Positions 24,362-51,608 of a stretch of 64,000 nt of DNA are shown here, piece by piece (position 1 is the stretch's first letter; each line of letters opens with the position of its first letter). The notes beneath the pieces were generated by a model. It did not search any database. It saw only the letters and a program-made list of their open reading frames with translations, and had not been told where the DNA came from. The position numbers were made by a program, and so were the translations under genes. The DNA is taken from contig JBDRLL010000010.1 of NCBI GenBank assembly GCA_043813075.1, positions 110,037-174,036 on the forward strand, given 5' to 3'. Source of the DNA: Candidatus Altiarchaeota archaeon (GTDB lineage Archaea; Altiarchaeota; Altiarchaeia; IMC4; SCGC-AAA252-I15).

Positions 24362-25480
24362 CTAGCTGAAACCCCTCTTAATCCTGTCGAAAATGCTGTC
24401 GCCAATCTCGCCCTCCATCTCTGAAAGCTTTTCAATCAACTCCCTATGCTTCTTAGAGACTTTCTCAGGCACCCTGACCACGGCCCTTACGTGCTGGTCC
24501 CCCCTACCAGAAGAGTGTATGTGGGGTATCCCCAGGTTCTTCATCCTGAATACTGTGTGTGACTGCGTGCCCTGCGGTATCTTAAGCCTCGCTTCTCCCT
24601 CAAGCGTCGGCACCCTCACCTCAGCACCAAGAACCGCCTGACTGTAGGTGACTGGTAGTTCACAGTATATGTCGTCACCATGCCTCTCGAAAAAATCGTC
24701 TTTAGAGACGTGTATCACAACATACAGGTCTCCCGTAGCCCCGCCAAAGACTCCTGCATTGCCTTCACCCTTAAGCCTCAAGTGATTACCCTCTGAAATA
24801 CCTGCGGGAACATCAACTTCAATATCCCTCCTATTCCTCTCTAACCCATCTCCGTCGCATTTACCACACCTGTCCTTGATTATGAACCCACGGCCCTTGC
24901 AATTGCCGCATGTCTTTATTGTCGTGAAGAATCCGAAGGGCGTCCTCTTCTGTATCCTCTGCTGGCCGGTTCCATGGCATATGCCGCAATCCTCCTTTCC
25001 AGTGCCTCCCATGCCCCTGCATGCGCCGCATCTCTCGAAACGCTCTATCCTTATCTTCCTCTTAGTCCCAAAGGCGGCCTCTCTTAGCGTTATCTCTATG
25101 TCATACCGCAGGTCGGTGCCCCTGGCCTTCCCGTCGCCCCTCGCCTGCCTGAAGCCCCTGCTGAAGAACATGTCGAATATGTCGCTTCCCCCGAAGAGGT
25201 CTTCTATGTCTCCGAAGTGGGTGAAGTCCTGCCATGTGAAGCCCTGGCTCCCGAAGTTCGTTCCGGAATGCCCGAACTGGTCGTACTGAGCCTTCTTCCC
25301 GTCATCGACAAGAACCTCATACGCCTCGCTGATCTCCTTGAACCTCTCCTCAGCCTCAGGGCTCTTGTTCACGTCAGGATGGTATTTCTTCGCGAGCTTC
25401 CTGTAGGAGCTCTTTATGTCGCTCTTGCTCGCGTCTTTCCCGACACCCAGAACCTCGTAATAATCCCTCTTCCCAGCCAT
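24362..25480 (-). CDS. dnaJ: Chaperone DnaJ (Hsp40)
   Basis: J-domain DYYEVLGV...KYHPD and four CxxCxGxG zinc motifs ([32 protein letters not shown]). Confidence 0.95.
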
Positions 25481-25517
25481 CTTAGGTTTATGTATCCCTT
25501 ATATATGTATGATTTTT

Positions 25518-26675
25518 TTAAAGAGGCGTGAGCTCGGTTATCAAGGCATCCCACGTGGGGTATTCCTCCACAACCGCCGGCTTCAATCCCATCTCCCTGA
25601 TTTTTCCGGCCAGCTCCTCCGCAATCCAGGCGCCCGTCAGTATCCTAAGCCTTTCAGCGTCCACCTCAATCAGCGCCCCATCGACTCCATAATCCCTCAT
25701 CAGCCTACGCCTAACTGACTCGAGTCTTCTCTTAATCCTCGCCTTCCCCCCAACACTGATCCTGTCAAGTTTTTTGGCGTAGTCAAAGGATGGCATAGTC
25801 TCCTCAAGGTATACGGCACCCCTGATGAGGAGTCCGTCATCGGTTACTATGTCATACTCCCTGGAAACATTCCCCGCCCTTCGTTTCAACCGGTTCTTCA
25901 GTTGTACTCCATCCTTAAGTCTGACCGTGCAGTAGTGGACTCCCAGTCTCGTGTTCCTCAGGCAGTAATCCAGTATCTTTCCAGCCGCCTTCTCGCTTCC
26001 CTTCACTGCGAAAGACACGTCGCTCTCAGCAAAGTAGCCCCGTTTTTCTAATGGCAGGGCGTTGGTTTCAGACACTTCAAGCTGGTTTATGTTCAGGAAT
26101 TTGACACCCAGTTCGTCTATGGCGTGTATGAACGACTTCGTCTCCCTAACGCGTCCTGGTATCGCGGGTATCTCGCATCCCACATCCCACCCGTACTCCA
26201 GGGCATTCCTGGCGGCACCCAAGTCCGCGTTCCCCCCCTCAATGAAATCCGGATGGAATCGTATCTCATCAAGCCCTGCCTTATATAGTCTCTCAAGGTT
26301 TTTCTGGGTCGCGTGCCTGCAGGTCGTGTAAAGGTGTATGTGGAAGCCTTCCCCAAAATTCTTCTTCAAGAGCCTTATGTAATGCAGCGTCCTATCCAGC
26401 CTGCACAACGGGTCTCCCCCTGTTATGCCCGCGCCAAGCGAGTCGCATAGCCTCGCCTCCTCCAGCACGTCCTTGTCCCTCCTAACCCACCACTCGTTTG
26501 CTACGACAACGTCCCTACCCCTCTTTCGCTCCGATAGCGGACAGTACCAGCAGCTGCTTGAACAGACTCCCGTCGCAAGCAACACAAGCTTACCGCCCTT
26601 AACGCAGATACTGCAACCCTTAGGCAGTCTGCCTATGCGCTTGCTGTAGTATGGGGTCTCAACAATCTTTCGCAT
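25518..26675 (-). CDS. Radical SAM protein (PFL-activase-related, COG2108-like)
   Basis: 385 aa. CSSSCWYC CxxxCxxC triad and ITGGDPL. It sits between dnaK and dnaJ. Confidence 0.7.
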   Translation of the reverse strand: MRKIVETPYYSKRIGRLPKGCSICVKGGKLVLLATGVCSSSCWYCPLSERKRGRDVVVANEWWVRRDKDVLEEARLCDSLGAGITGGDPLCRLDRTLHYIRLLKKNFGEGFHIHLYTTCRHATQKNLERLYKAGLDEIRFHPDFIEGGNADLGAARNALEYGWDVGCEIPAIPGRVRETKSFIHAIDELGVKFLNINQLEVSETNALPLEKRGYFAESDVSFAVKGSEKAAGKILDYCLRNTRLGVHYCTVRLKDGVQLKNRLKRRAGNVSREYDIVTDDGLLIRGAVYLEETMPSFDYAKKLDRISVGGKARIKRRLESVRRRLMRDYGVDGALIEVDAERLRILTGAWIAEELAGKIREMGLKPAVVEEYPTWDALITELTPL

Positions 26676-26681
26676 GTTAAC

Positions 26682-27077
26682 CTACTTCTCGAATCTGAGC
26701 AGTTCACCAGTCTTGATTAAAACCTGTTTTTCAGTAAAATCTGTTGAAAAGATTTCCTTTAAGATCGAAAACAGGTTTACCCTAGGGCCGTCAGATTCCT
26801 GACCTCCCTCAGCCTTTATGTTAATCCCGATTTTATCGCCAGGATACGCGTGCTCCAGCACGTCATGATGCTTCTCCATCGACTTGGCGACGTACGTGAT
26901 GCCATTATGGACACACTTATAGCCCGGCTCGATCATCCCTGAAACAACCTCTCCAACGATTATCGTGCCGACACCAGCTATCCTATACGTCTTGTCGACA
27001 GTGAACTCCCCGAAACCTCTGGATGAACCAGACTCTGCATTAAGACGCCTCTCCACCTCATCAACAGATGAAACCAT
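26682..27077 (-). CDS. Stand-alone EF-Tu/EF-1alpha domain-2-like beta-barrel protein
   Basis: FTVDKTYRIAGVGTIIVGEVVSGMIEPGYKCV...AYPGDKIGINIKA matches the GTP_EFTU_D2 pattern. The ATG at 27075-27077 is 2 nt after the dnaK stop; the track start is an overlapping GTG at 27083. Confidence 0.6.
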   Translation of the reverse strand: MVSSVDEVERRLNAESGSSRGFGEFTVDKTYRIAGVGTIIVGEVVSGMIEPGYKCVHNGITYVAKSMEKHHDVLEHAYPGDKIGINIKAEGGQESDGPRVNLFSILKEIFSTDFTEKQVLIKTGELLRFEK

Positions 27078-27079
27078 GT

Positions 27080-29005
27080 TCACTTCTTCTCGTCTTCACC
27101 TACCTTGTAGTCTGCGTCAACAACGTTATCATCACTCCTGCCTTCATCCTCTTTCTTGGATTCTCCGCCCGCAGCCTGCTGCTCCTGCTGATACTTCTGG
27201 GCAGCCTCCTGATACATCTTGGTGAACAACTCCTGGCTGCTCTTGCTTAGTTCCTCGCTCCTGGACTTTATCCTCTCAACATCCCCTGATTCTATGGCCT
27301 CGCGGACTCCCTTCACCTTCCCCTCAAGATCCTCCTTCTGCTTCACATCAACCTTGTCGCCGACCTCCTTCAAGGCCTTCTCAACGCCATAGGCAAGAGT
27401 CTCGGCGTTGTTCACGGTATCCGCCTTCTCCTTCTTCTTCTTGTCCTCGTCGGCGTGCTCTTCAGCCTCCTTCTGCATCCGCTTTATGTCGCTGTCAGTA
27501 AGGCCTGATTTGGCGTGTATCGTTATGGCCTGCTGTTTTCCTGTCGCAAGGTCTCTGGCGGAAACGTTCAGTATCCCGTTAGCGTCTATCTTGAAGGTCA
27601 CCTCAACCTGCGGTATCCCCCGGGGTGCTGGTGGGATGCCGGTCAACTGGAATTTACCGAGGCTCTTGTTGTCCTCAGCCATCTCACGGTCTCCCTGCAG
27701 CACGTTGATTTCGACCGAGGTCTGGTTGTCCGCAGCAGTCGAAAACACCTGCTTCTTCTCGGTCGGTATAGTAGTGTTCCTCTCAATAAGCCTTGTGAAA
27801 ACCCCGCCAAGAGTCTCTATGCCCAGGGACAATGGCGTAACATCCAGTAATAGCACGTCCTTCACTTCCCCGCCCAAGACGCCCGCCTGTATAGCAGCCC
27901 CAACGGCCACAACCTCATCTGGATTAACGCTCTTGTTGGGTTCCTTCCCGAAAATCTTTTTCACAGTATCTACGACGGCAGGCATCCTAGTCTGCCCGCC
28001 AACCAGAATCACCTCGTCAATCTCAGACAGCTTCAGGCCAGAGTCAGCCAGAGCCTTCTTGCACGGTTCGATGGTCTTGTCAATCAGGTCTCCAGTCAGC
28101 TGCTCCAGCTTCGACCTGGTCAAGGTTATGTTCATGTGCAGTGGCCCGGACTCTCCCTGAGTGATGAACGGGAGGTTCACTTCAGTCTTTGTTGTTGAAG
28201 ACAACTCTATCTTTGCTTTTTCGGCCGCATCCTTCAGGCGCTGTAGGGTCATGTTGTCCTCCCTCAGATCTATTCCATTGTCCTTCTTGAATTCCTCTGC
28301 AAGCCATTGTATGATTTTGTAGTCGAAGTCGTCTCCGCCCAGGTGGGTGTTGCCGTTGGTGGACTTGACTTCAAAGACTCCGTCACCCACCTCCAGTATG
28401 CTTATGTCGAACGTACCGCCGCCAAGATCGTATACCGCAATCTTCTCCTCCTTCTTCTTGTCCAAACCGTAAGCAAGGGACGCTGCGGTAGGCTCGTTGA
28501 TTATCCTCAAGACCTCAAGCCCCGCAATCTTGCCTGCATCTTTGGTCGCCTGCCTCTGGCTGTCGTTGAAGTATGCTGGCACGGTTATGACTGCCTGTGT
28601 TATCTCCTCCCCCAGGTATGCTTCAGCATCTGCCTTCAGCTTCTGCAGTACCATGGCTGAAATCTCGGGTGAGGCATAGTCCTTACCGTCGACCTTGATT
28701 CTTATGTCGCCGTTTGACGCCTCAATAATCTTGTAGGGTATTGTCTTCTTGATCTCTTTCATCTCAGCGTCCTTGAACTTCCTGCCGATGAACCTCTTCA
28801 CACTGTATATGGTCTTATCAGGGTTTGTTATGGCCTGCCTCTTAGCCACCTGCCCGACCAGCCTCTCGTCGTCTTTTGTGAACGCAACTATCGACGGCGT
28901 TGTCCTGTTCCCCTCCGCGTTTGGTATGACCTCCGGCTTCCCAGCCTCCATCACTGCCATGCACGAGTTCGTAGTCCCCAAATCTATTCCCAGTATCTTA
29001 CTCAT
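27080..29005 (-). CDS. dnaK: Chaperone DnaK (Hsp70)
   Basis: 641 aa. [17 protein letters not shown] and [11 protein letters not shown] signatures. Confidence 0.97.
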
Positions 29006-29009
29006 AGTA

Positions 29010-29516
29010 TCACCCTTTTCTCGGTTTTATAATCTTTACTTTCGCAGGCCTCACGACCCTTGAGTGCAGCATGTAACCCTTCTGCAGCACCTCTGAGACG
29101 GTCTCCCCGTCAACGTCACCTTCTTCGGCCATCAGAGCCTCATGGTAGTTTGGGTCGAACTTGTCTCCAGAGGGGTTTAACTCTTCTACACCGTGTTTTT
29201 TAAGCAGGGCTTCCAGCTGTTTGAGTGTTAGTCTCACGCCGTCAATCACCCCGTCACCGTTATCCTTGTTGTCGAGTGCACGCTCGAGGTTGTCCTTCAC
29301 CTCCAGGAATTCTTCGACAATCTCCTGGTTAGCGTACCTCCTGCTATCCTCCTTATCGCGTTCAACCCTCTTCTTATAGTTCTCAAAGTCTGCCTGAACC
29401 CGCTGCAAAAGGCCTTTATACTCGTCCGCATCGGCCTTAAAGTCCTCTGTAGCCCTTTTCCCACCTGTTTTAGGGGTTTTCCTGTGGTGTTCCTCCTTAC
29501 CCATATGCTCCACCAA
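29010..29516 (-). CDS. grpE: Nucleotide exchange factor GrpE
   Basis: 168 aa. [16 protein letters not shown] and C-terminal [14 protein letters not shown] are typical of GrpE. It is 4 nt upstream of dnaK. Confidence 0.9.
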
Positions 29517-29614
29517 AAAGTGAGATAAACTATTGGTTTAGCTGTATATAAATCTTTTCCTTTTTGTGGTGGAGCACCATAAACCGCCGACTATTTTTTA
29601 AGAATTAAGACAAG

Positions 29615-29656
29615 ATATTTATCCAATCTTCCGGGCTGGTAGTCTAGTCGGTTATG
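29615..29656 (+). repeat. Direct repeat copy 1: 18 nt of upstream sequence plus the first 24 nt of tRNA-Val (partial 5' tRNA copy)
   Basis: atatttatccaatcttccgggctggtagtctagtcggttatg is identical to 29726-29767. It diverges after tRNA position 24. Confidence 0.9.
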
Positions 29657-29664
29657 CCGGAACC

Positions 29665-29683
29665 CCTTTTCCCACAGAAAAGG
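29665..29683 (+). other. Hairpin (7-bp stem, 5-nt loop) in the spacer after the partial 5' tRNA copy
   Basis: ccttttc ccaca gaaaagg; the arms are perfectly complementary. Confidence 0.6.
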
Positions 29684-29743
29684 TGTTTCAACCCCAAAAG
29701 AACATAATTTATAACCTAAAGCCACATATTTATCCAATCTTCC

Positions 29744-29817
29744 GGGCTGGTAGTCTAGTCGGTTATGACGTCGCCTTTACGAGGCGAAGATCCCCGGTTC
29801 GAATCCGGGCCAGCCCA
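29744..29817 (+). tRNA. tRNA-Val (anticodon UAC)
   Basis: Manual cloverleaf: acceptor GGGCTGG/CCAGCCC, D arm GTCT-AGTCGGTTA-TGAC, anticodon arm TCGCC-TTTACGA-GGCGA (TAC), T arm CCCGG-TTCGAAT-CCGGG, discriminator A. 74 nt, no encoded CCA, no intron. Confidence 0.9.
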
Positions 29818-29845
29818 CTCAGATAACAGCAATAGCATTCTGTGT
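29801..29845 (+). repeat. Direct repeat copy 1: last 17 nt of tRNA-Val plus 28 nt of trailer
   Basis: gaatccgggccagcccactcagataacagcaatagcattctgtgt is repeated at 29884-29928 with one mismatch (c/t). Confidence 0.9.
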
Positions 29846-29864
29846 CAACAACCGGCCAGGATAA

Positions 29865-29882
29865 GCAACTTGAAAAAGTTGC
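29865..29882 (+). other. Hairpin with GAAA tetraloop between the two 3' repeat copies
   Basis: gcaactt gaaa aagttgc; perfect 7-bp stem. Confidence 0.6.
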
Positions 29883-29883
29883 G

Positions 29884-29928
29884 GAATCCGGGCCAGCCCA
29901 CTCAGATAACAGCAATAGCATTTTGTGT
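29884..29928 (+). repeat. Direct repeat copy 2 (partial 3' tRNA-Val copy plus trailer)
   Basis: 44 of 45 nt identical to 29801-29845. It is followed by a T6 run at 29936-29941. Confidence 0.9.
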
Positions 29929-29932
29929 ACTC

Positions 29933-30640
29933 TTATTTTTTACCGCCTTTGCCTTCTGCCGTTGACTTGTAGACTGCCGCCAACGCCACCAGTATCATCC
30001 CAGTTATTATTGCCACGGCCACTGCAGGGCCTTTTTCACTGGGCTTCTCGTATGCTTTCTCGCAGTCATTGTCCATGTCATATGTCATGCAGTCCGGGTC
30101 GCATTTGCCTTCCGGTATGCCGTCGCAGTAGCCATCCCCCCCTCCAGACTTGCAGTCTTTCGGGCAGTTGCCGAAGTTCTCACCCTTCCCGCACTCCCTG
30201 TTCCCGCAGTAGTTTGACAGTCTCCTAACGTTTATCCCAAGTTCCTTATCGCCTGCTGGATTGTAGACCCGTATCTCAGAGGCACTGCTATAATAAGGCG
30301 TAGTAACCACTATAGTTGACTTATCGGCCTTCGAGACCGGTGGCATTGGTGCGGGCCGGATTTGCCTTCCAGTATCGTCGAATATGTCCAACGGCGGTGC
30401 ATACGAGACATCCCTTGGGAAGCTGAATCTCCCGGTGTAAAGAGTCTCCCCCCTGTATGAGACTACTTTAAGGCTGTAGTCCCCTTGGTAAGCCGGGCCA
30501 GCCCTTAAGCCGACCACCTCAACACCCCTCTCTACTATCTTGCCTTTATCGTATTTCAGGGTTATCCTAAAACTTTTCTCCGAGTCGCCTAATGCTCCCA
30601 ACACCAGGAAGACCGCCAACATAGTGGTTATTCGCCGCAT
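29933..30640 (-). CDS. Secreted Cys-rich protein with C-terminal TM anchor
   Basis: The likely start is MRRITTMLAVFLVLGALG (ATG at 30638-30640; the track ORF extends to 30691). Cys-rich module NYCGNRECGKGENFGNCPKDCKSGGGDGYCDGIPEGKCDPDC. C-terminal hydrophobic AVAVAIITGMILVALAAVY. Confidence 0.6.
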   Translation of the reverse strand: MRRITTMLAVFLVLGALGDSEKSFRITLKYDKGKIVERGVEVVGLRAGPAYQGDYSLKVVSYRGETLYTGRFSFPRDVSYAPPLDIFDDTGRQIRPAPMPPVSKADKSTIVVTTPYYSSASEIRVYNPAGDKELGINVRRLSNYCGNRECGKGENFGNCPKDCKSGGGDGYCDGIPEGKCDPDCMTYDMDNDCEKAYEKPSEKGPAVAVAIITGMILVALAAVYKSTAEGKGGKK

Positions 30641-30645
30641 TTTCT

Positions 30646-32142
30646 TCACCCCGAATAGCTGTTCAAGACTTGTGTGACATAGTGCTTGCAAACGTCATTG
30701 AAGTAGTAATTATGGTACTGGCTGTTCATGAGGCTCTGGTCTGCAGACCTCCACCAGTTGCTGTTGCTGCAGCCAGCGATACAATCATGGTCCGAGTCCA
30801 TCCCATCCCATCTGCTGCACTGGCTTGAGGATGCCACGCAATTCTTGTCAGCAGTCCCCTGCCAGTAGCCTGCGTAAGTGTACTCGTCCCTCAGGCTTAT
30901 GAACGAATGACCTGTCTCATGGATGAGCGTCCTCTCAACATCCTCCCTGTTCCTACCATAATTACCCCCGTTTATCATCAACGGGAAACTGTCCGTCAAA
31001 TACTCGTGGCCTATGCACACGTGCGCGTTCCCCCCGAAGTACGCGTGTGATATGAATCTTGGATTGACTGATAGCAGTACTGCCCTATCCCCTGTTGAGG
31101 AGAAGAACGGGCATTCCCTCGCTAGACTGGTTACCTGACCGTCTCTTACGCCGTCGTCTTCATCCATCACCCTGTCATAGTCCTTCTCCACCCTCCATAC
31201 CGCAATCTTATTGGAGCCCTTGTATGGGGGCACAGCATCACCCCCAACAAGCTGCTCCTTCATCTTGCTCGTAACCATCCTGAAGTCTGTCAGGCTGTTG
31301 AATCCGCTTCCCACAAACACGACGTCTAGCTTGCCCTGGGGGTTGTCGTCACCCCATATGAGTCTACAGTAGTTTACCTTCGGCAGGGTGGTTGTCGTAC
31401 TTGCCGGTCCTCCGCATCTCTGGTTGCTCTGGCAGTCCTGGTCATCACAGTCAACGTCTCCGTCACAGTCGTTGTCATAGCCATCATTGCATTTGCCCTC
31501 CGGGTTTTCCATCCCCCAGTCTATGCATTCCTGGTCGTCACAGTCAATGTAGCCGTCCCCGTCGTCATCCACGCCGTTCCTGCATTTTTTAGCGTCATTC
31601 TCGTTTTTCTTGCCTTTTACGCACGGCTTCTTTATCCGGCAGTCCTGGTCGTCGCAGTCGACGTCTCCATCGCAGTCGTCGTCCTTATTGTTCTTGCATT
31701 TCCTCTCTGCTATGCCTCTCACAGCGTTCAGGCAGTCTTGGTCATCGCAGTCTATGGTGCCGTCACCGTCATCGTCGACTTGATTCCTGCATTTCCTTGC
31801 CTTGTCCTCGCCCTTGACCCTTATTACGCACGCCCTCTTGTTTTTGCAATCAGTGTCCGAGCAGTCTACGAGCCCGTCGCAGTCCTCGTCCTTCCTGTTG
31901 CCGCACCTCTTCTCCGGATTGACTCCCGCAATCCTAATGCAGTCTGAGTCATAGCAGTCCACTCCCCCATCACCGTCGTCGTCAATGCCGTTGGTGCAGA
32001 GCCTTGTGTTGTCTTCCGCAGCGCAGTTAGGGCTGCATGCGTCTAGTCTAGCCGAGTCGACGGCGCTAGCGTAAAGGATGGCTAATGTCAGTAAAACTAG
32101 CGTGTTTCTCGTGAAGATTCTGGCGCATGAATTCATTTGCAC
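30646..32142 (-). CDS. Secreted zinc metalloprotease, M64 (IgA-peptidase)-like, with N-terminal triplicated Asp/Cys-rich modules
   Basis: 498 aa with a signal-like N-terminus. LIHETGHSFISLRDEY matches the HExxH...DEY signature I associate with peptidase M64. Three tandem units of about 69 aa carry C.N..DDDGDG..DC.D.DC and KC....D.DCDG.VDC.D.DC. Confidence 0.65.
   Translation of the reverse strand: MQMNSCARIFTRNTLVLLTLAILYASAVDSARLDACSPNCAAEDNTRLCTNGIDDDGDGGVDCYDSDCIRIAGVNPEKRCGNRKDEDCDGLVDCSDTDCKNKRACVIRVKGEDKARKCRNQVDDDGDGTIDCDDQDCLNAVRGIAERKCKNNKDDDCDGDVDCDDQDCRIKKPCVKGKKNENDAKKCRNGVDDDGDGYIDCDDQECIDWGMENPEGKCNDGYDNDCDGDVDCDDQDCQSNQRCGGPASTTTTLPKVNYCRLIWGDDNPQGKLDVVFVGSGFNSLTDFRMVTSKMKEQLVGGDAVPPYKGSNKIAVWRVEKDYDRVMDEDDGVRDGQVTSLARECPFFSSTGDRAVLLSVNPRFISHAYFGGNAHVCIGHEYLTDSFPLMINGGNYGRNREDVERTLIHETGHSFISLRDEYTYAGYWQGTADKNCVASSSQCSRWDGMDSDHDCIAGCSNSNWWRSADQSLMNSQYHNYYFNDVCKHYVTQVLNSYSG
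31414..32037 (-). repeat. Coding tandem repeat (3 units of about 69 codons) of Asp/Cys-rich putative metal-binding modules
   Basis: Residues about 36-243 of the M64-like protein. The units start near residues 49, 118 and 187. The DNA-level repeats are imperfect. Confidence 0.7.
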
Positions 32143-32261
32143 GTACCTGCTGTTTATTCATATGACTGCTCTGTTTATATCATGCTCCCTGGCAGTGCAA
32201 AACCAATAAAACAAAAAAATATTCTATATAATACAAAACATTTTTTTTTTTGCGTGTGGTT

Positions 32262-32846
32262 CTAAAGGCAGACCCCATCCTTGCATCCGTCAGAGCAGTC
32301 TTCGGTGGCGGGCGGCATGCTCATCATGGTCTGTCCGACGAACTTCCTGGACTCCTTACACTCCGATTCCGGGGTGCCCGGCTTCTTGCACAAATAACTC
32401 ACGCTCTGGAGGTAGACGTCACCCCTATAGCAGACCCTGACTTCCGCGGACTCGCCGCAGTCGCTGTTCACGCTGCACGCTATCTTTATGGTGGTCGTAG
32501 TGGTGGTCTCCATCATGGTCGTAGTCACCATCTTGACGGTGGTTGTCGTCGTCGCCAGCGTAGTTTCAGGGGACTTCACGGTAGTCGTGGTCGCAACCAC
32601 CTCGTCCTTGTCGCATATGCCGTTATAGTCCTCGTCAAGGCAGCAGCCAACCCCCACCTGGATGTACGGTGGCGAGCACATCAAAGTGGTTGTGGTCGCG
32701 CTTCCAGAACCACCGCCAAACCCGAACAAACCCTTAATGAAGCCGATAATCCTGGAGATAATGCCCTTACCCTCTTCCGCACTAACGGTGGCAGAGATGA
32801 TGATCATCAGGATAAGAGTCATTAAAACCCATCTCGCAAGACCCAT
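32262..32846 (-). CDS. Secreted Thr-rich / Cys-rich protein
   Basis: The likely start is MGLARWVLMTLILMIIISATVSA (ATG at 32844-32846). Long Thr runs (ATTTTL, VATTTTV, LATTTTTV, METTTTTTIKIA) and a Cys-rich C-terminal domain. The longer track ORF would overlap the divergent NUDIX gene. Confidence 0.55.
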   Translation of the reverse strand: MGLARWVLMTLILMIIISATVSAEEGKGIISRIIGFIKGLFGFGGGSGSATTTTLMCSPPYIQVGVGCCLDEDYNGICDKDEVVATTTTVKSPETTLATTTTTVKMVTTTMMETTTTTTIKIACSVNSDCGESAEVRVCYRGDVYLQSVSYLCKKPGTPESECKESRKFVGQTMMSMPPATEDCSDGCKDGVCL

Positions 32847-32880
32847 ATTACATATTACCCCGACTTTATAATAATAAAAC

Positions 32881-33279
32881 ATGTTTGACGCCAAGAAACC
32901 CATACTCACTGTTGACGCGCTCATAAGAAGAGGGGACTCCATACTACTGATAAAACGCGTTAACCCCCCATTCAAGGGTATGTGGGCGATACCGGGAGGT
33001 TTTGTGGACTACGGGGAGACCGTTGAACATGCTGTAGTCAGGGAGGCTCTTGAGGAGACCGGCCTTGAAGTCAAGGTCATCCGACTGACTGGAGTATACT
33101 CTGATCCTGCAAGGGATCCCAGGGGCCATACAGTCTCCCTAGTATACGAGTGCGTTATCACCGGCGGGATACTGTCTGCAGGAGATGACGCGGGGGATGC
33201 GGAGTACTTCAGTCTGGAGGATTTGCCTGACCTGGCTTTTGACCACAGGAAGATAATTGAAGACTATCGCAGTCTTTAA
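32881..33279 (+). CDS. NUDIX hydrolase
   Basis: 132 aa. Nudix box GGFVDYGETVEHAVVREALEETGL (Gx5Ex7REUxEExGU). Confidence 0.9.
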   Translation: MFDAKKPILTVDALIRRGDSILLIKRVNPPFKGMWAIPGGFVDYGETVEHAVVREALEETGLEVKVIRLTGVYSDPARDPRGHTVSLVYECVITGGILSAGDDAGDAEYFSLEDLPDLAFDHRKIIEDYRSL

Positions 33280-33656
33280 ATCAGGTGTGATTCGCAGCGG
33301 ATGCTGCATGAGCAGTAGTTGCCGCCATTCTGGTCGTACTTCATGCCATCATCGCATCTGAACACGCTTCCAGGAGACCTGCCCTCGCACTCACTGCCTT
33401 TGGAGCAGACCAAGCCGATTTCCGGCTGGCAGTACTCATTGCATTCGCAGTTGAAGCTGCCCTCAAGGTCTTCCTCCATCCGCTTGTCGCATATATAGCT
33501 GTCTCCGGGATTCTTGCCGTCGCATGTGTTTCCAGAGGAACAGACTGTTATAGCGCCTCCAGTGACTGAAGGCCGGCTGACCCTAACATAGCTCATAGCG
33601 AAAAGAGAGAAAACAATCGGTATGAGCATGAAGAGGATTATCCGATTGTCTTTCAT
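33276..33656 (-). CDS. Small secreted Cys-rich protein with an internal two-module duplication
   Basis: 126 aa. N-terminal hydrophobic signal/anchor, then CSSGNTCDGKNPGDSYICD...CECNEYC and CSKGSECEGRSPGSVFRCD...CSCSIRC. Confidence 0.55.
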   Translation of the reverse strand: MKDNRIILFMLIPIVFSLFAMSYVRVSRPSVTGGAITVCSSGNTCDGKNPGDSYICDKRMEEDLEGSFNCECNEYCQPEIGLVCSKGSECEGRSPGSVFRCDDGMKYDQNGGNYCSCSIRCESHLI

Positions 33657-33724
33657 GTTTATTAACGGGATAAATGAGTTTAAAAGCGTTTATAAGGCTT
33701 TTTCAGGGGTTTATGGCCTGTCTT

Positions 33725-33760
33725 ATGCTGCGTGAAAAAAAAGGGGTGGTTGCGGGGTGT
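33725..33760 (-). terminator. Putative terminator of gap: hairpin followed by a T8 run (minus strand)
   Basis: Immediately after the gap stop, the minus strand reads gcgggtgaaacaccccgc ... tttttttt. Oligo-T is the known archaeal termination signal. Confidence 0.45.
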
Positions 33761-33761
33761 T

Positions 33762-34775
<1,014 letters not shown>

Positions 34776-34881
34776 CTATGTATTTACCCGCTCCTCTAAA
34801 AATCCTTTATAACCCCTATTTTTAAGCATCTACTCCCAATATCTCCATACGAGGGGTGGTCTGGTATGAAGAGGCTGGGCA

Positions 34882-35577
34882 ATGGAGAGACTGGACGAGC
34901 TAGTGGAGTCAGAAGACAGCACATGGAAGGATATCCTTCACGAAGTGCTGAAGGGCATGGACCCCTGGGATATTAACCTGGCAGAGCTGGCAACCCGTTA
35001 TTCTAAGAGAGTCGATGAGATGCGGGAGATGAACTTCCGCATTCCGGCGAACGTCATACTAGTCTGCTCCGTGTTATTAAGGATGAAGGCTGACATACTC
35101 ACCCCCCGGCCGAAGGAATACACTGATTTTGCCACGTCATTCGACTTCATATTCAACAGCTCCTACCCTACCGCGGCGTTGGTCTCGTCTGAGACGGAGC
35201 CGTATCCCATATCCATAAAACCAACAAGGAGCCTGACCCGCCGGGTTACTGCTGAAGAGTTGATAGAAGCCATCCAGAGCGCGCTGACAGAACGGGGTAG
35301 GGCTAAGTCCAGGATGGTTGAAGTCAGGGATGATGGCGGCCGTGTGCGTGAGATTGTTATCGAGCCGGAAGTCAACATGCTCGTTGTTATAGAGTCAACC
35401 TACAAGCGTATTATGGAGATTCTGTCTGCGAAAGAGGTGGCTTTGTTCTCTGACATCGCAAAGACCCGTGACGAGATAATGTCAACGTTCCTGTCCCTGC
35501 TCCACCTGTCAAATGACATGAAGATAATGCTGAATCAGGAGCAATTGTTCGGGGAGATATATATAAAGCATATGTAA
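34882..35577 (+). CDS. scpA: Segregation and condensation protein A (kleisin)
   Basis: 231 aa. The N-terminal PWDINLAELATRYSKRVDEM region and the size fit ScpA. scpB is present at 49033-49644. Confidence 0.6.
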   Translation: MERLDELVESEDSTWKDILHEVLKGMDPWDINLAELATRYSKRVDEMREMNFRIPANVILVCSVLLRMKADILTPRPKEYTDFATSFDFIFNSSYPTAALVSSETEPYPISIKPTRSLTRRVTAEELIEAIQSALTERGRAKSRMVEVRDDGGRVREIVIEPEVNMLVVIESTYKRIMEILSAKEVALFSDIAKTRDEIMSTFLSLLHLSNDMKIMLNQEQLFGEIYIKHM

Positions 35578-49985: not shown

Positions 49986-51608
49986 TCAATCCTCCTTTGT
50001 TATCATCAACGGCGTCCTCGCTATGATGGCCGCCCCCAGTGCGAGTATTGCGGGTAGTGCTGGCAGGCAGCATAACCCCCCCTCACCATCATCATCCCCT
50101 CGCCCCTTCGTCGTGGGTTTTGGAGTGTCCAAGAGCTCGTCCATGTCGCGGGTTTTTTGTGTAGTGGTTGTGGCGGTTTCTACTGCCTTTTGCTTTGCTT
50201 TCATCTCAGCGTCTATCTCATCCTTCACTTCTTGAGGTATTGTCGTCGTGGTCGGTGGTTTTGGCACGTAGTTCCTGTTTATCTCATAGACTCTCACGTC
50301 GCCTATGTACTGGTTGCCCATTATAGTGTCCTGCTCCCAGTTCCACCCCACAACAACCTCCACGGCCCCGTCCAAGTCCAGGTCGCTGAAGCGTATCGCC
50401 ACAGCGTTAGCGTCACGCTCTTCATACGCCCTGCTGGAGCCCTGTATCTCTACAGTGTATCTCCAACTGCCCTTCAGTTTCCCGTTGTTGTCTAACACAT
50501 GGATGTACCTGCTGGTTCCGACTGCAACCTCCATCTTGCCGTCCCCGTCCAAGTCTGCAGATGATATGCTGTATATCGTTGAGGGAGTGTCTGACCCCCA
50601 GGACCATTTCTTGCCTCCTCTGCCGTCTAGTGCGATAACGTTCGAGCCTGAACCCACCAGGACCTCCCTGCTGCCGTCCCCGTCCACGTCTGCCGTATGG
50701 ACGCTTGAGACTAGGTTGCCTGTCTTGTAGCTCCACTCTTTAGCACCCTTGCTGTCGTATGATTCCACGCCGTTCTCGTATGTGCCGACTATGATGCTGT
50801 ATTTCCCTGGCTTCATCTCAGCTACTTCGACGACATTGCTTGTTAGTGCGGGCGTGTAGAGCCCTTTAGGTATGTTTGCCTCCCACATCTTCCCCCCCAT
50901 ATTGTCGATGCAGTAGATGTATGCGTCCAGGTATTTGCTGGAGACTGCTATGGTCTCCGCCTTACCGTCCCCGTTTATGTCCATGGATTTAACGTACTGG
51001 ACTTCGTACTTGCCTGTGTCATAGCTCCATAGTATGGGAGTCTTGTCTTTGGGGTTGTCTTTTATGACGCACACTTTTCTTGCCTTGGTGCCCATCACAA
51101 CGTTCTTGACGCCTGTCCCGTCTATGTCTGCCACGTCCACGCTGTGGGTGAAACCGCATTCCTTGTCGAAGTTCCAGTCGTCTATCGCATTGTCCTTTAT
51201 TACGTAGACGTATTCGGTCGGGGTTGATGATTTCTCCCGCTTAGACTCGATGGAGTTCATGACAATCTGGTTCCTACCGTCCCCGTCAAGGTCTGCCACA
51301 GCAAAGCTCTTAACATCTCCTGGAGTGTTGTACGACCATCCTCCGTTGTCAAGCACCTCCCAGTCTGTCGTGCAGTCAGCGCCCTTGTATATGTAGTTGT
51401 ATAGGATGCCGTTCTTGCTGGTTCCGACCAGTATGTTGGGCACCCCATCCTTGTCCACGTCAACGACCTGTATCAGGTTGATGAAATCGTCTGAAAGCGT
51501 TGAAACGCATGTTGGGTTAAGGTAACCGTCACCAGAGCCTTGTGAAACACCATTCTGAGCCAATATAAAAACAGCTAGCAGTCCGATAAAGTAAGATCCT
51601 TTATTCAT
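49986..51608 (-). CDS. Secreted FG-GAP (integrin-alpha-like) beta-propeller protein with C-terminal anchor
   Basis: 540 aa. Seven DxDxDG-type repeats (DVDKDGVPNILVGT, DLDGDGRNQIV, DIDGTGVKNVV, DINGDGKAETIAV, DVDGDGSREVLVGS, DLDGDGKMEVAVGT, DLDLDGAVEVVVG), Thr-rich linkers, and a C-terminal hydrophobic LCCLPALPAILALGAAIIA. Confidence 0.75.
   Translation of the reverse strand: MNKGSYFIGLLAVFILAQNGVSQGSGDGYLNPTCVSTLSDDFINLIQVVDVDKDGVPNILVGTSKNGILYNYIYKGADCTTDWEVLDNGGWSYNTPGDVKSFAVADLDGDGRNQIVMNSIESKREKSSTPTEYVYVIKDNAIDDWNFDKECGFTHSVDVADIDGTGVKNVVMGTKARKVCVIKDNPKDKTPILWSYDTGKYEVQYVKSMDINGDGKAETIAVSSKYLDAYIYCIDNMGGKMWEANIPKGLYTPALTSNVVEVAEMKPGKYSIIVGTYENGVESYDSKGAKEWSYKTGNLVSSVHTADVDGDGSREVLVGSGSNVIALDGRGGKKWSWGSDTPSTIYSISSADLDGDGKMEVAVGTSRYIHVLDNNGKLKGSWRYTVEIQGSSRAYEERDANAVAIRFSDLDLDGAVEVVVGWNWEQDTIMGNQYIGDVRVYEINRNYVPKPPTTTTIPQEVKDEIDAEMKAKQKAVETATTTTQKTRDMDELLDTPKPTTKGRGDDDGEGGLCCLPALPAILALGAAIIARTPLMITKED

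Follow-up and report, generated by a model that had tools for sequence, protein, structure and literature searches.

Why should a tRNA gene be flanked, on both sides and at close range, by pieces of itself? The question is raised by a tRNA-Val(UAC) gene in a stretch of 64,000 nucleotides (nt), called the window here, from Candidatus Altiarchaeota archaeon (assembly GCA_043813075.1, contig JBDRLL010000010.1, positions 110,037 to 174,036 of the forward strand). This is the one tRNA detected in the window by ARAGORN and Rfam (+ strand, 29744-29817/8), and its CCA is not encoded. A truncated copy of the gene sits 111 nt 5' of it, and a copy of the last 17 nt of the tRNA plus 28 nt of trailer is placed 83 nt 3' of the original. 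These pieces are real, are homologous between species, are lacking in some relatives, and are decayed in one; furthermore, the copy number of the 3' unit changes between strains. The reading that is put forward here, with a probability of roughly 0.55, is that the pieces are inherited recombination relics, not a new gene; gene conversion would keep them the same as the working copy, and they would be transcribed along with it as passenger leader and trailer.

On the 5' side, a segment of 42 nt occurs exactly twice in the window, at 29615-29656 and 29726-29767, and is matched in none of 100 dinucleotide-preserving shuffles, the control that was also used for the 3' repeat. The full direct repeat is longer, 63 nt with 86% identity (29597-29659 versus 29708-29770), so that the orphan takes in the A/T-rich box, the leader, and tRNA positions 1-27. 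Its tRNA part has a single mismatch, C for A at 29657. The box of the truncated copy, TTTTTTAAGAATTAAG, a candidate TATA element of archaeal type, occupies the position that the TTTATAAC box holds in the intact gene. After the fragment comes a perfect 7-bp hairpin (29665-29671/29677-29683), which is the inner part of a longer, interrupted 12-bp hairpin at 29659-29689 (GGAAC.CCUUUUC/GAAAAGG.GUUUC).

On the 3' side, 29801-29845 and 29884-29928 share 44 of their 45 nt, and the shuffles gave no match here either; as a tandem repeat, the window holds 1.5 units of 83 nt. The 38 nt between the two copies contain a GAAA-loop hairpin enclosed by an 11-nt inverted repeat (29852-29862/29886-29896). The right arm of this inverted repeat is tRNA-derived sequence, and the left arm, CCGGCCAGGAT, is the inverted complement of tRNA positions ~59-70. 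Because the left arm, C(C/U)GG-CCMGG-AU, reads as acceptor positions 4-7 fused to the 5' strand of the T-stem, the 3' piece looks like a degenerate tRNA copy minus the D and anticodon domains, i.e., a minihelix, in which a hairpin stands where the T-loop would be and the 3' strand corresponds to tRNA positions 58-73. The first run of at least five T residues 3' of the tRNA is the T6 at 29936-29941, past the second 3' copy. It is likely the terminator of the whole unit, and its region overlaps the stop-codon region of a convergent open reading frame (ORF) at 29933-30691. Both duplications, the AT-rich box 5' of the orphan copy, the two hairpins, and the placement of the oligo-T run only past the second 3' copy had been noticed in a first-pass annotation of this stretch, made from the sequence alone. 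All of these observations stand, and the 5' repeat and the hairpin behind it proved to be larger than had been described.

The same kind of structure is found in relatives. Syntenic loci (grpE, tRNA-Val, NUDIX) were gathered from about ten lineages with GrpE as the anchor, and one more came from a metagenome pattern scan; they are listed by locus number in Table 1, where each identity is that of GrpE to the GrpE of the window. Beyond an identical one, which is annotated as Candidatus Altiarchaeota, 16 GrpE homologues were found with 56-75% identity, the annotated ones being from Altiarchaeales. The tRNA-Val of the window is itself 100% identical to the tRNA of L089, L096, L105, and L108. Homologous 3' cassettes are present in L001, in L089 (two copies), and in L114, with a decayed one in L096, and the cassette arm GGCC(A/C)GGATAAG is common to the window, L001, and L089 and degraded in L096. 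Units of the type seen in L108 have a T-arm that is interrupted at position 59/60; at this insertion there is relaxed hBH-like pairing only, as judged by eye. Copy number varies between close relatives: two units in L089 versus one in L114, and two in L108 and L110 versus one in L109. The ordinary single-copy flank that the first-pass annotation had named as the finding that would speak against its account is seen in two lineages only (L103 and L105). In blastn and regular-expression searches that covered the window and all related loci, the modules were detected at the tRNA-Val locus alone, a confinement on which a dispersed repeat or miniature inverted-repeat transposable element was rejected. 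When metagenomes were scanned for pairs of tRNA 3' ends separated by 55-85 nt, 15 loci came up; 14 of them are GC-rich bacterial tandem repeats, and L089 alone is relevant.

Table 1. Features of the tRNA-Val locus in the window and state of the related loci
Feature or locus	Coordinates	Strand	Composition or state	Basis
A/T-rich box	29594..29609	+	TTTTTTAAGAATTAAG, ~30-40 nt 5' of truncated copy	Sequence; within 63-nt direct repeat
Truncated tRNA-Val copy	29615..29659	+	18-nt leader (29615-29632) and tRNA positions 1-27 (29633-29659)	Repeat search; homologue at same place in L001
Hairpin module	29659..29703	+	GGAAC/GUUUC outer helix, CCUUUUC/GAAAAGG inner helix, AACCCCAAAAGAA tail	Folds; likeness to L097 intron
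TATA-like box and leader of intact gene	29708..29743	+	TTTATAAC (29708-29715) and leader; second copy of 63-nt repeat	Sequence, repeat search
tRNA-Val(UAC), intact	29744..29817	+	74 nt	ARAGORN; Rfam RF00005, 70.8 bits
First trailer	29818..29851	+	28-nt repeated part (29818-29845) with small hairpin, then spacer	Repeat search, fold
3' minihelix-like cassette	29852..29900	+	Arm CCGGCCAGGAT (29852-29862), AAG, 7-bp GAAA-loop hairpin (29865-29882), second tRNA 3' end GAATCCGGGCCAGCCCA (29884-29900)	Sequence, fold, homologous cassettes
Second trailer copy and T run	29901..29941	+	28-nt copy (29901-29928), then T6 (29936-29941)	Sequence, repeat search
Variable block	29933..32880	-	Cys-rich, predicted secreted ORFs of 252, 498, and 237 amino acids, between tRNA array and NUDIX	ORFs, comparison of loci
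L001 (GrpE 75%)			5' fragment (1-27) and long hairpin module, intron-less tRNA, 3' cassette, oligo-T run	
L096 (GrpE 70%)			No 5' fragment; mutated cassette ~150 nt downstream, 34 nt at 94% to that of the window	
L089 / L115 (GrpE 67%)			No 5' fragment; two tandem 3' units, then third 3' end directly ahead of NUDIX	
L114 (GrpE same as L089)			One 3' unit only	
L097 (GrpE 65%)	L097:2215-2365	-	tRNA-Val(UAC) with 76-nt intron at 37/38, strict hBHBh' motif	
L107 (GrpE 61%)			tRNA inverted	
L108, L110 (GrpE 59%)			Two tandem 101-nt units of other type: CCCCGGTTCGAA, 54-nt two-hairpin insert, TCCGGGCCAGCCCA	
L109 (GrpE 59%, same species as L108)			One 101-nt unit	
L103 (GrpE 67%) and L105/L106 (GrpE 56%)			Plain tRNA, NUDIX directly next	
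Small membrane ORF	L001:9334-9804, L096:888-1385, L103:3194-3628, L105:557-991, L107:1330-1734, L108:2416-2814			

What the 5' piece consists of is indicated by the intron-bearing locus, L097. The part of the window module at 29676-29702 matches the interior of the 76-nt L097 tRNA-Val intron with 92.6% identity over 27 nt, and the preceding GA(A/G)CCCCTTTTC is matched as well. The module of L001 matches a hairpin directly 3' of the L097 tRNA, with 95.7% identity over 47 nt. In addition, A-GAAC-hairpin-GTTC-AC opens the trailer in both L096 and L097, and the modules that follow the 5' fragments of the window and L001 are built in the same way. Because of these likenesses, the 5' piece is best described as a copy of the tRNA-Val gene without positions 28-74, joined to a trailer-type or intron-type hairpin. 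An anticodon arm was also considered for the hairpin after the fragment and rejected, since the loop has 5 nt, position 33 is a C, and the loop is not conserved. The L097 gene itself is missed by default ARAGORN and miscalled as tRNA-Arg with the intron option; the sequence spliced in silico is called tRNA-Val(UAC). Intron-bearing tRNAs may be under-counted in metagenome-assembled genomes (MAGs) of Altiarchaeota, possibly including that of this window, with its one tRNA per 64 kb.

How would such pieces arise and persist? In the favored model, they are partial copies that remain from rearrangements of the DNA between grpE and NUDIX, a recombination hot spot throughout this lineage of Altiarchaeota, and they would have arisen in the ancestor of a sub-clade. 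Two routes are conceivable: (a) an integrase-type insertion with duplication of its core, followed by one collapse in the ancestor, or (b) a tandem duplication of a unit "promoter – tRNA – trailer hairpin," followed by internal deletions. In favor of route (b), the two upstream regions are alike beyond the identical tract in the window and in L001, the hairpin joined to the 5' fragment is of the trailer type, and the "tail" sequence flanks the tRNA on both sides in L097. In L001 and L089, the CTC/CTA trailer known from the plain-state L103 is found on the distal 3' copies, and the proximal copies have another trailer, which argues for an insertion between the tRNA body and the ancestral 3' end with its trailer.

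After the founding event, the tRNA-derived parts would have been homogenized with the functional gene, whether through gene conversion or through unequal crossing-over; in the window, this would have affected tracts of 42 nt and 45 nt. Such concerted evolution is suggested by the L001 fragment, which has L001-specific tRNA changes, and by the window, where identity reaches into leader and trailer. Both window 3' copies carry a CTCA trailer, which fits a conversion tract of 45 nt; the first trailer begins as does the trailer of L103. Transcription would start at either A/T box, or at both, and would not end until the T6 run, so that the transcript would take in the fragment and module, the tRNA, and the trailer with the cassette; co-transcription with the tRNA is proposed because there is no oligo-T run of at least five before 29936. 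RNase P and RNase Z would then cut out the sole complete tRNA, and the remainder would be discarded, needing no function. Finally, the identical 42-45-nt tracts, kept by conversion with a selected gene, would mediate the occasional gain or loss of a unit, as the copy-number variation in relatives suggests.

Several points weigh against this model. An arm that is not derived from the tRNA, CYGGCCMGGATAAG, is conserved between species whose other spacers do not align. A hairpin is kept at the same place with quite different sequences in the window, L001, and the two L089 units (L089a and L089b), and the latter are identical to one another except for this hairpin of ~20 nt. The second 3' end of L001 follows after a gap of 69 nt, the same spacing as in the window. 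All of these features would likewise be compatible with selection for structure, in RNA or in DNA. Furthermore, with Pfam no integrase or mobile-element domain that might point to the founding event was found, either among the ORFs scanned at 24362-35577 or among those variable ORFs of relatives that were scanned. Direct repeats of this length (42-45 nt) at so short a distance would be expected to disappear readily, but these have outlasted speciation. The sampling, moreover, covers about ten lineages.

Of the alternatives, the one that survives best, while still considered unlikely, is that the flanking pieces are themselves selected structured elements, either a leader hairpin plus a trailer RNA of ~83 nt or DNA recombination sites. 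In its RNA version, the leader hairpin and the trailer RNA, which consists of hairpin A and a minihelix cassette ending in ...CCAGCCCA, would be freed by RNase P/Z and would serve pre-tRNA processing or stability or act as a small tRNA-like RNA; in its DNA version, the pieces would be sites of recombination in which the inverted arms are conserved and the palindromic center varies. The conserved arm just mentioned has no template in the tRNA, and a two-helix fold (P1 plus P2) is predicted for all four intact cassettes despite their differing hairpin sequences, which MAFFT did not align structurally among the five sequences. The constant spacing would be explained as well, as would the promoter-like boxes that are retained 5' of the 5' fragment and the terminator that is found only past the cassette, both in the window and in L001. 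The whole region also folds better than shuffles (z = -3.2), but the low energy is mostly due to the tRNA itself. Against selection, the pieces are absent in L103 and L105, are decayed in L096, and vary in copy number within a species, and there are 3' cassettes without 5' fragments. The four to five sequences are too few for covariation, and the right arm is fixed by its identity with the tRNA. In addition, a search of 29520-29960 with Rfam 15 (E<=5) detected RF00005 on the intact gene only, plus one stray sub-threshold match on the opposite strand, and no other family.

A bolder form of this idea, which must be held less likely again, is that a living tRNA-derived shell surrounds the tRNA-Val of Altiarchaeota. 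The shell would consist of a 5' fragment with its hairpin and one or more 3' minihelix cassettes of ~85-100 nt, each with a palindromic core that varies between conserved inverted arms. The cassettes would be either trailer RNAs under selection or structure-specific sites of recombination whose number grows and shrinks, and the module would have become a canonical bulge-helix-bulge (BHB) intron in L097. If true, the locus would offer a direct snapshot of an archaeal tRNA intron that is born from, or is dying into, partial gene duplications.

Among other possibilities, it was originally proposed that the duplications are scars of attachment (att) sites, left by integrative elements that had targeted both ends of the tRNA and were later lost, and that the Cys-rich genes downstream could be cargo. 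As a broad category, recombination or integration scars are indeed the closest of the four options offered in the first-pass annotation, given the empty sites in L103 and L105 (tRNA, then NUDIX), the ancestral trailer on the distal copy, and the variable neighbors; the narrower picture of elements aimed at both ends is less probable. That the repeats are att sites of an integrative element that is recognizable or was recently active, with the Cys-rich genes as its cargo, is improbable. Such sites would be expected to look like the direct repeats of 42 and 45 nt, which are identical to a tRNA end and have one copy within the intact gene; both in length and in content (tRNA end plus flank) they resemble archaeal att sites (PMC3293823; bioRxiv 10.1101/2022.07.05.498093). 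The gene content on both sides of the tRNA also differs between relatives, and the Cys-rich block is missing in L089, L114, L103, and L105, where NUDIX directly follows the tRNA array or the tRNA. However, only 69 nt (5') and 38 nt (3') lie between the repeat copies, so that they enclose no genes and bracket no element coding for an integrase or recombinase, and there is no third copy of a tRNA end at the NUDIX-side boundary of the Cys-rich genes. In L097, an ortholog with 50% identity occupies the place of the ORF of 237 amino acids next to NUDIX (32262-32975); therefore, the block is not wholly specific to the window. GC content is unremarkable. A search for elements that carry the repeats as attP, as had been recommended, gave nothing relevant in IMG/VR: scans for the tRNA 5' end, the tRNA 3' end, and the cassette had no matches, and a looser cassette pattern had three, which are ascribed to chance because they all fall inside one phage coding region.

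It is very doubtful that the outer pieces serve as exons for a further tRNA-like RNA, split or nested, in which they would form an acceptor stem around the inner tRNA and be spliced together by the endonuclease, or that they are halves of an older intron-containing tRNA-Val that is still used. The minimum free energy fold does pair the outer 5' and 3' pieces, but this pairing is automatic, since they are identical to the tRNA ends. Two further options of the first-pass annotation, a small RNA transcribed from the 5' fragment and alternative acceptor pairing in the pre-tRNA, are conceivable. The L097 gene, with its BHB intron and the homology of the intron body to the window module, lends some color to the idea. 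So does an alignment of the window cassette interior with the 3' end of that intron and the start of exon 2, for which p is ~0.007 by shuffling; the same test gives p ~0.04 for L089a and ~0.05 for L096 and is not significant for L001 and L089b, values that are marginal after five tests, so this likeness is suggestive only. Together, the outer pieces cover tRNA positions 1-27 and about 58-73, with neither an anticodon arm nor a T-loop, and the hairpin loops are not conserved and offer no Val anticodon context. A scan for the strict hBHBh' motif, which recovers the true L097 intron, found none at any junction in the window; it returned two weak, GU-rich self-pairings between the duplicated 5' sequences. 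Moreover, L089 and L108 have 3' cassettes without 5' fragments, and the presence of an intact, intron-less tRNA-Val(UAC) means that a second copy is not needed.

An assembly artefact, in which strain variants had collapsed or a repeat was misjoined, as the first-pass annotation had also allowed, is very unlikely and the weakest reading of all: the window does come from a MAG, short repeats near a conserved tRNA can mislead assemblers, and assemblies of one species can disagree on how many 3' units there are. However, in the closest relative, L001, a 910-nt region with this architecture shows no difference between three independent assemblies (L111, L112, and L113), and several species have homologous architecture in assemblies that are independent of one another. 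A typical read is longer than the repeats (42-63 nt), and the intervening sequence is unique and homologous to that of relatives.

Other identities were considered for the 3' cassette and rejected. For a T-loop intron, there is no bulge-helix-bulge register. A C/D-box or K-turn reading of GGAUAAG...CGGAAU was set aside because inspection revealed no C/D boxes and no K-turn register and Rfam gave no match. A CRISPR-like array would not have at most 2-3 units, a "repeat" of 45-66 nt, and a variable part of ~20 nt that is self-complementary. A likeness to integron attC sites was rejected or kept as an analogy only.

The surroundings of the locus gave several further observations. On the minus strand 5' of tRNA-Val lie grpE (29010-29516), dnaK, a radical-SAM gene, and dnaJ; on the 3' side, three Cys-rich ORFs without a Pfam family are followed by NUDIX, GAPDH, and ScpA. 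The dnaK-dnaJ operon is broken by a small ORF with EF-Tu domain 2/4-like matches and by the radical-SAM gene (26682-27083 and 25518-26675, minus), and the radical-SAM insertion is common to L098, L103, L105, and L107. The region upstream of grpE (29520-29576) contains a nearly invariant element of ~30 nt between grpE and the tRNA, present at the same place in L001, L096, L097, L103, L105, and L108. It reads GAGATAAACTATTGGTTT(A/G)(G/C)CTGTATATA on the + strand and, on the strand of grpE, a TATA box and then CAGSYAAACCAATAGTTTATCTC immediately ahead of the start codon. A 14-nt inverted repeat (29506-29519/29563-29576) encloses it in the window. It is a candidate for the promoter plus heat-shock operator of the grpE-dnaK-dnaJ operon.

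Within the Cys-rich block, the ORF of 498 amino acids (30646-32142, minus) has repeated Cys/Asp-rich modules, CxxxxDDDGDGxxDCxDxDC, and a C-terminal HExxH-like motif, IHETGHSF, with no Pfam match; from these motifs, it may be a secreted metalloprotease-like surface protein. A 16-mer in the ORF of 252 amino acids (30490-30505) agrees with the tRNA 3' end at 14 of 16 positions (AAGCCGGGCCAGCCCT). With ~0.6 matches of this kind (at most 3 mismatches) expected by chance in the window, this is probably a coincidence, though it lies 590 nt from the tRNA. Elsewhere in the window there are a 55-nt direct repeat pair with 91% identity and a spacing of 143 nt (57431-57485/57574-57628) and three copies of a 32-nt repeat at 50527-51296.

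In most relatives, a small membrane ORF of 132-165 amino acids, 40-50% identical between genomes and with weak, sub-threshold matches to type IV secretion system (T4SS) pilin/TrbC, lies between grpE and the tRNA. In L108 it has its place across the tRNA, and the window, L089, and L097 lack it; its shifting position is apparently further evidence of rearrangement around the tRNA. In L107, the tRNA-Val (L107:1229-1303) is inverted relative to grpE and NUDIX, and a short, oppositely oriented piece nearby, AAATCCGGGAC, resembles the 3' part of the tRNA, as if an inversion had passed through the T-arm region.

If the pieces are inherited recombination relics, then the locus is a well-resolved case, from a little-studied archaeal phylum, of how tRNA genes gather partial copies of themselves and of how such copies persist via gene conversion. 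It would also caution annotators against naming such copies as genes or as att sites of present elements. The more useful point is that a genuine tRNA-Val intron of 76 nt, in a related genome, has an interior homologous to the hairpin that the 5' fragment carries. This homology links rearrangements of gene fragments to the gain or loss of an intron in one tRNA across close lineages, a process for which there are few natural intermediates.

Partial tRNA copies beside archaeal tRNA genes are already known. Copies of ~27-44 nt arise by recombination at these genes, and a published 5' fragment that covers positions 1-27 has been tied to intron gain (PMC3293823; bioRxiv 10.1101/2022.07.05.498093; PMC3218864). 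In the literature searched, no description was found of a short-range, two-sided arrangement that is conserved across species, of tandem minihelix cassettes, or of a fragment-linked hairpin homologous to the real intron of a relative. A close parallel is the tRNA-Thr(GGU) of Caldiarchaeum subterraneum (Sugahara et al. 2012, PMC3293823), where a 5' fragment of positions 1-27 with identical upstream sequence also lies 5' of the full gene and where closely related genomes have different introns in this tRNA, a difference connected with the rearrangement. There, however, a 1.8-kb insertion coding for a recombinase separates fragment and gene, whereas the window has a 48-nt hairpin module and a promoter copy; in addition, the intron gained in that case is at 24/25, whereas L097 has its intron at the canonical position, 37/38, with a body that is also found in the window module.

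The attL/attR repeats of archaeal elements (those of SSV1-type and pNOB8-type integrases, PYG1 in Pyrococcus yayanosii, and the TKV elements) are likewise partial copies of a tRNA end in direct orientation beside an intact gene. Their published length of 44 bp compares with ~42-45 nt in the window, flanking sequence may be included, and relatives have empty sites and variable neighbors (bioRxiv 10.1101/2022.07.05.498093; PMC3293823). Known cases bracket 1.8-23 kb with an integrase, whereas the repeats in the window bracket 38-69 nt with no integrase nearby among the scanned ORFs. Furthermore, both ends of the gene are affected here, the structure is shared across species, and the 3' unit is in tandem and varies in copy number. 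Split and tri-split tRNA genes (Nanoarchaeum equitans, Caldivirga maquilingensis, and the Desulfurococcales; PMC3218864) share with the window separate 5' and 3' pieces, a promoter-like box on the 5' piece, and a break whose position near 25-27 resembles a known split or intron position. They differ in that the window has neither a piece with the anticodon arm nor flanks that form a BHB, and a complete gene for the same tRNA stands between the pieces. Finally, minisatellite-like tandem repeats, which change by unequal crossing-over and gene conversion, resemble the locus in its head-to-tail units of 83-101 nt, in the difference of one versus two extra units between strains, and in its homogenized blocks. 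Unlike such repeats, each unit begins inside a functional tRNA gene and holds a degenerate, minihelix-like copy with a conserved inverted-repeat arm.

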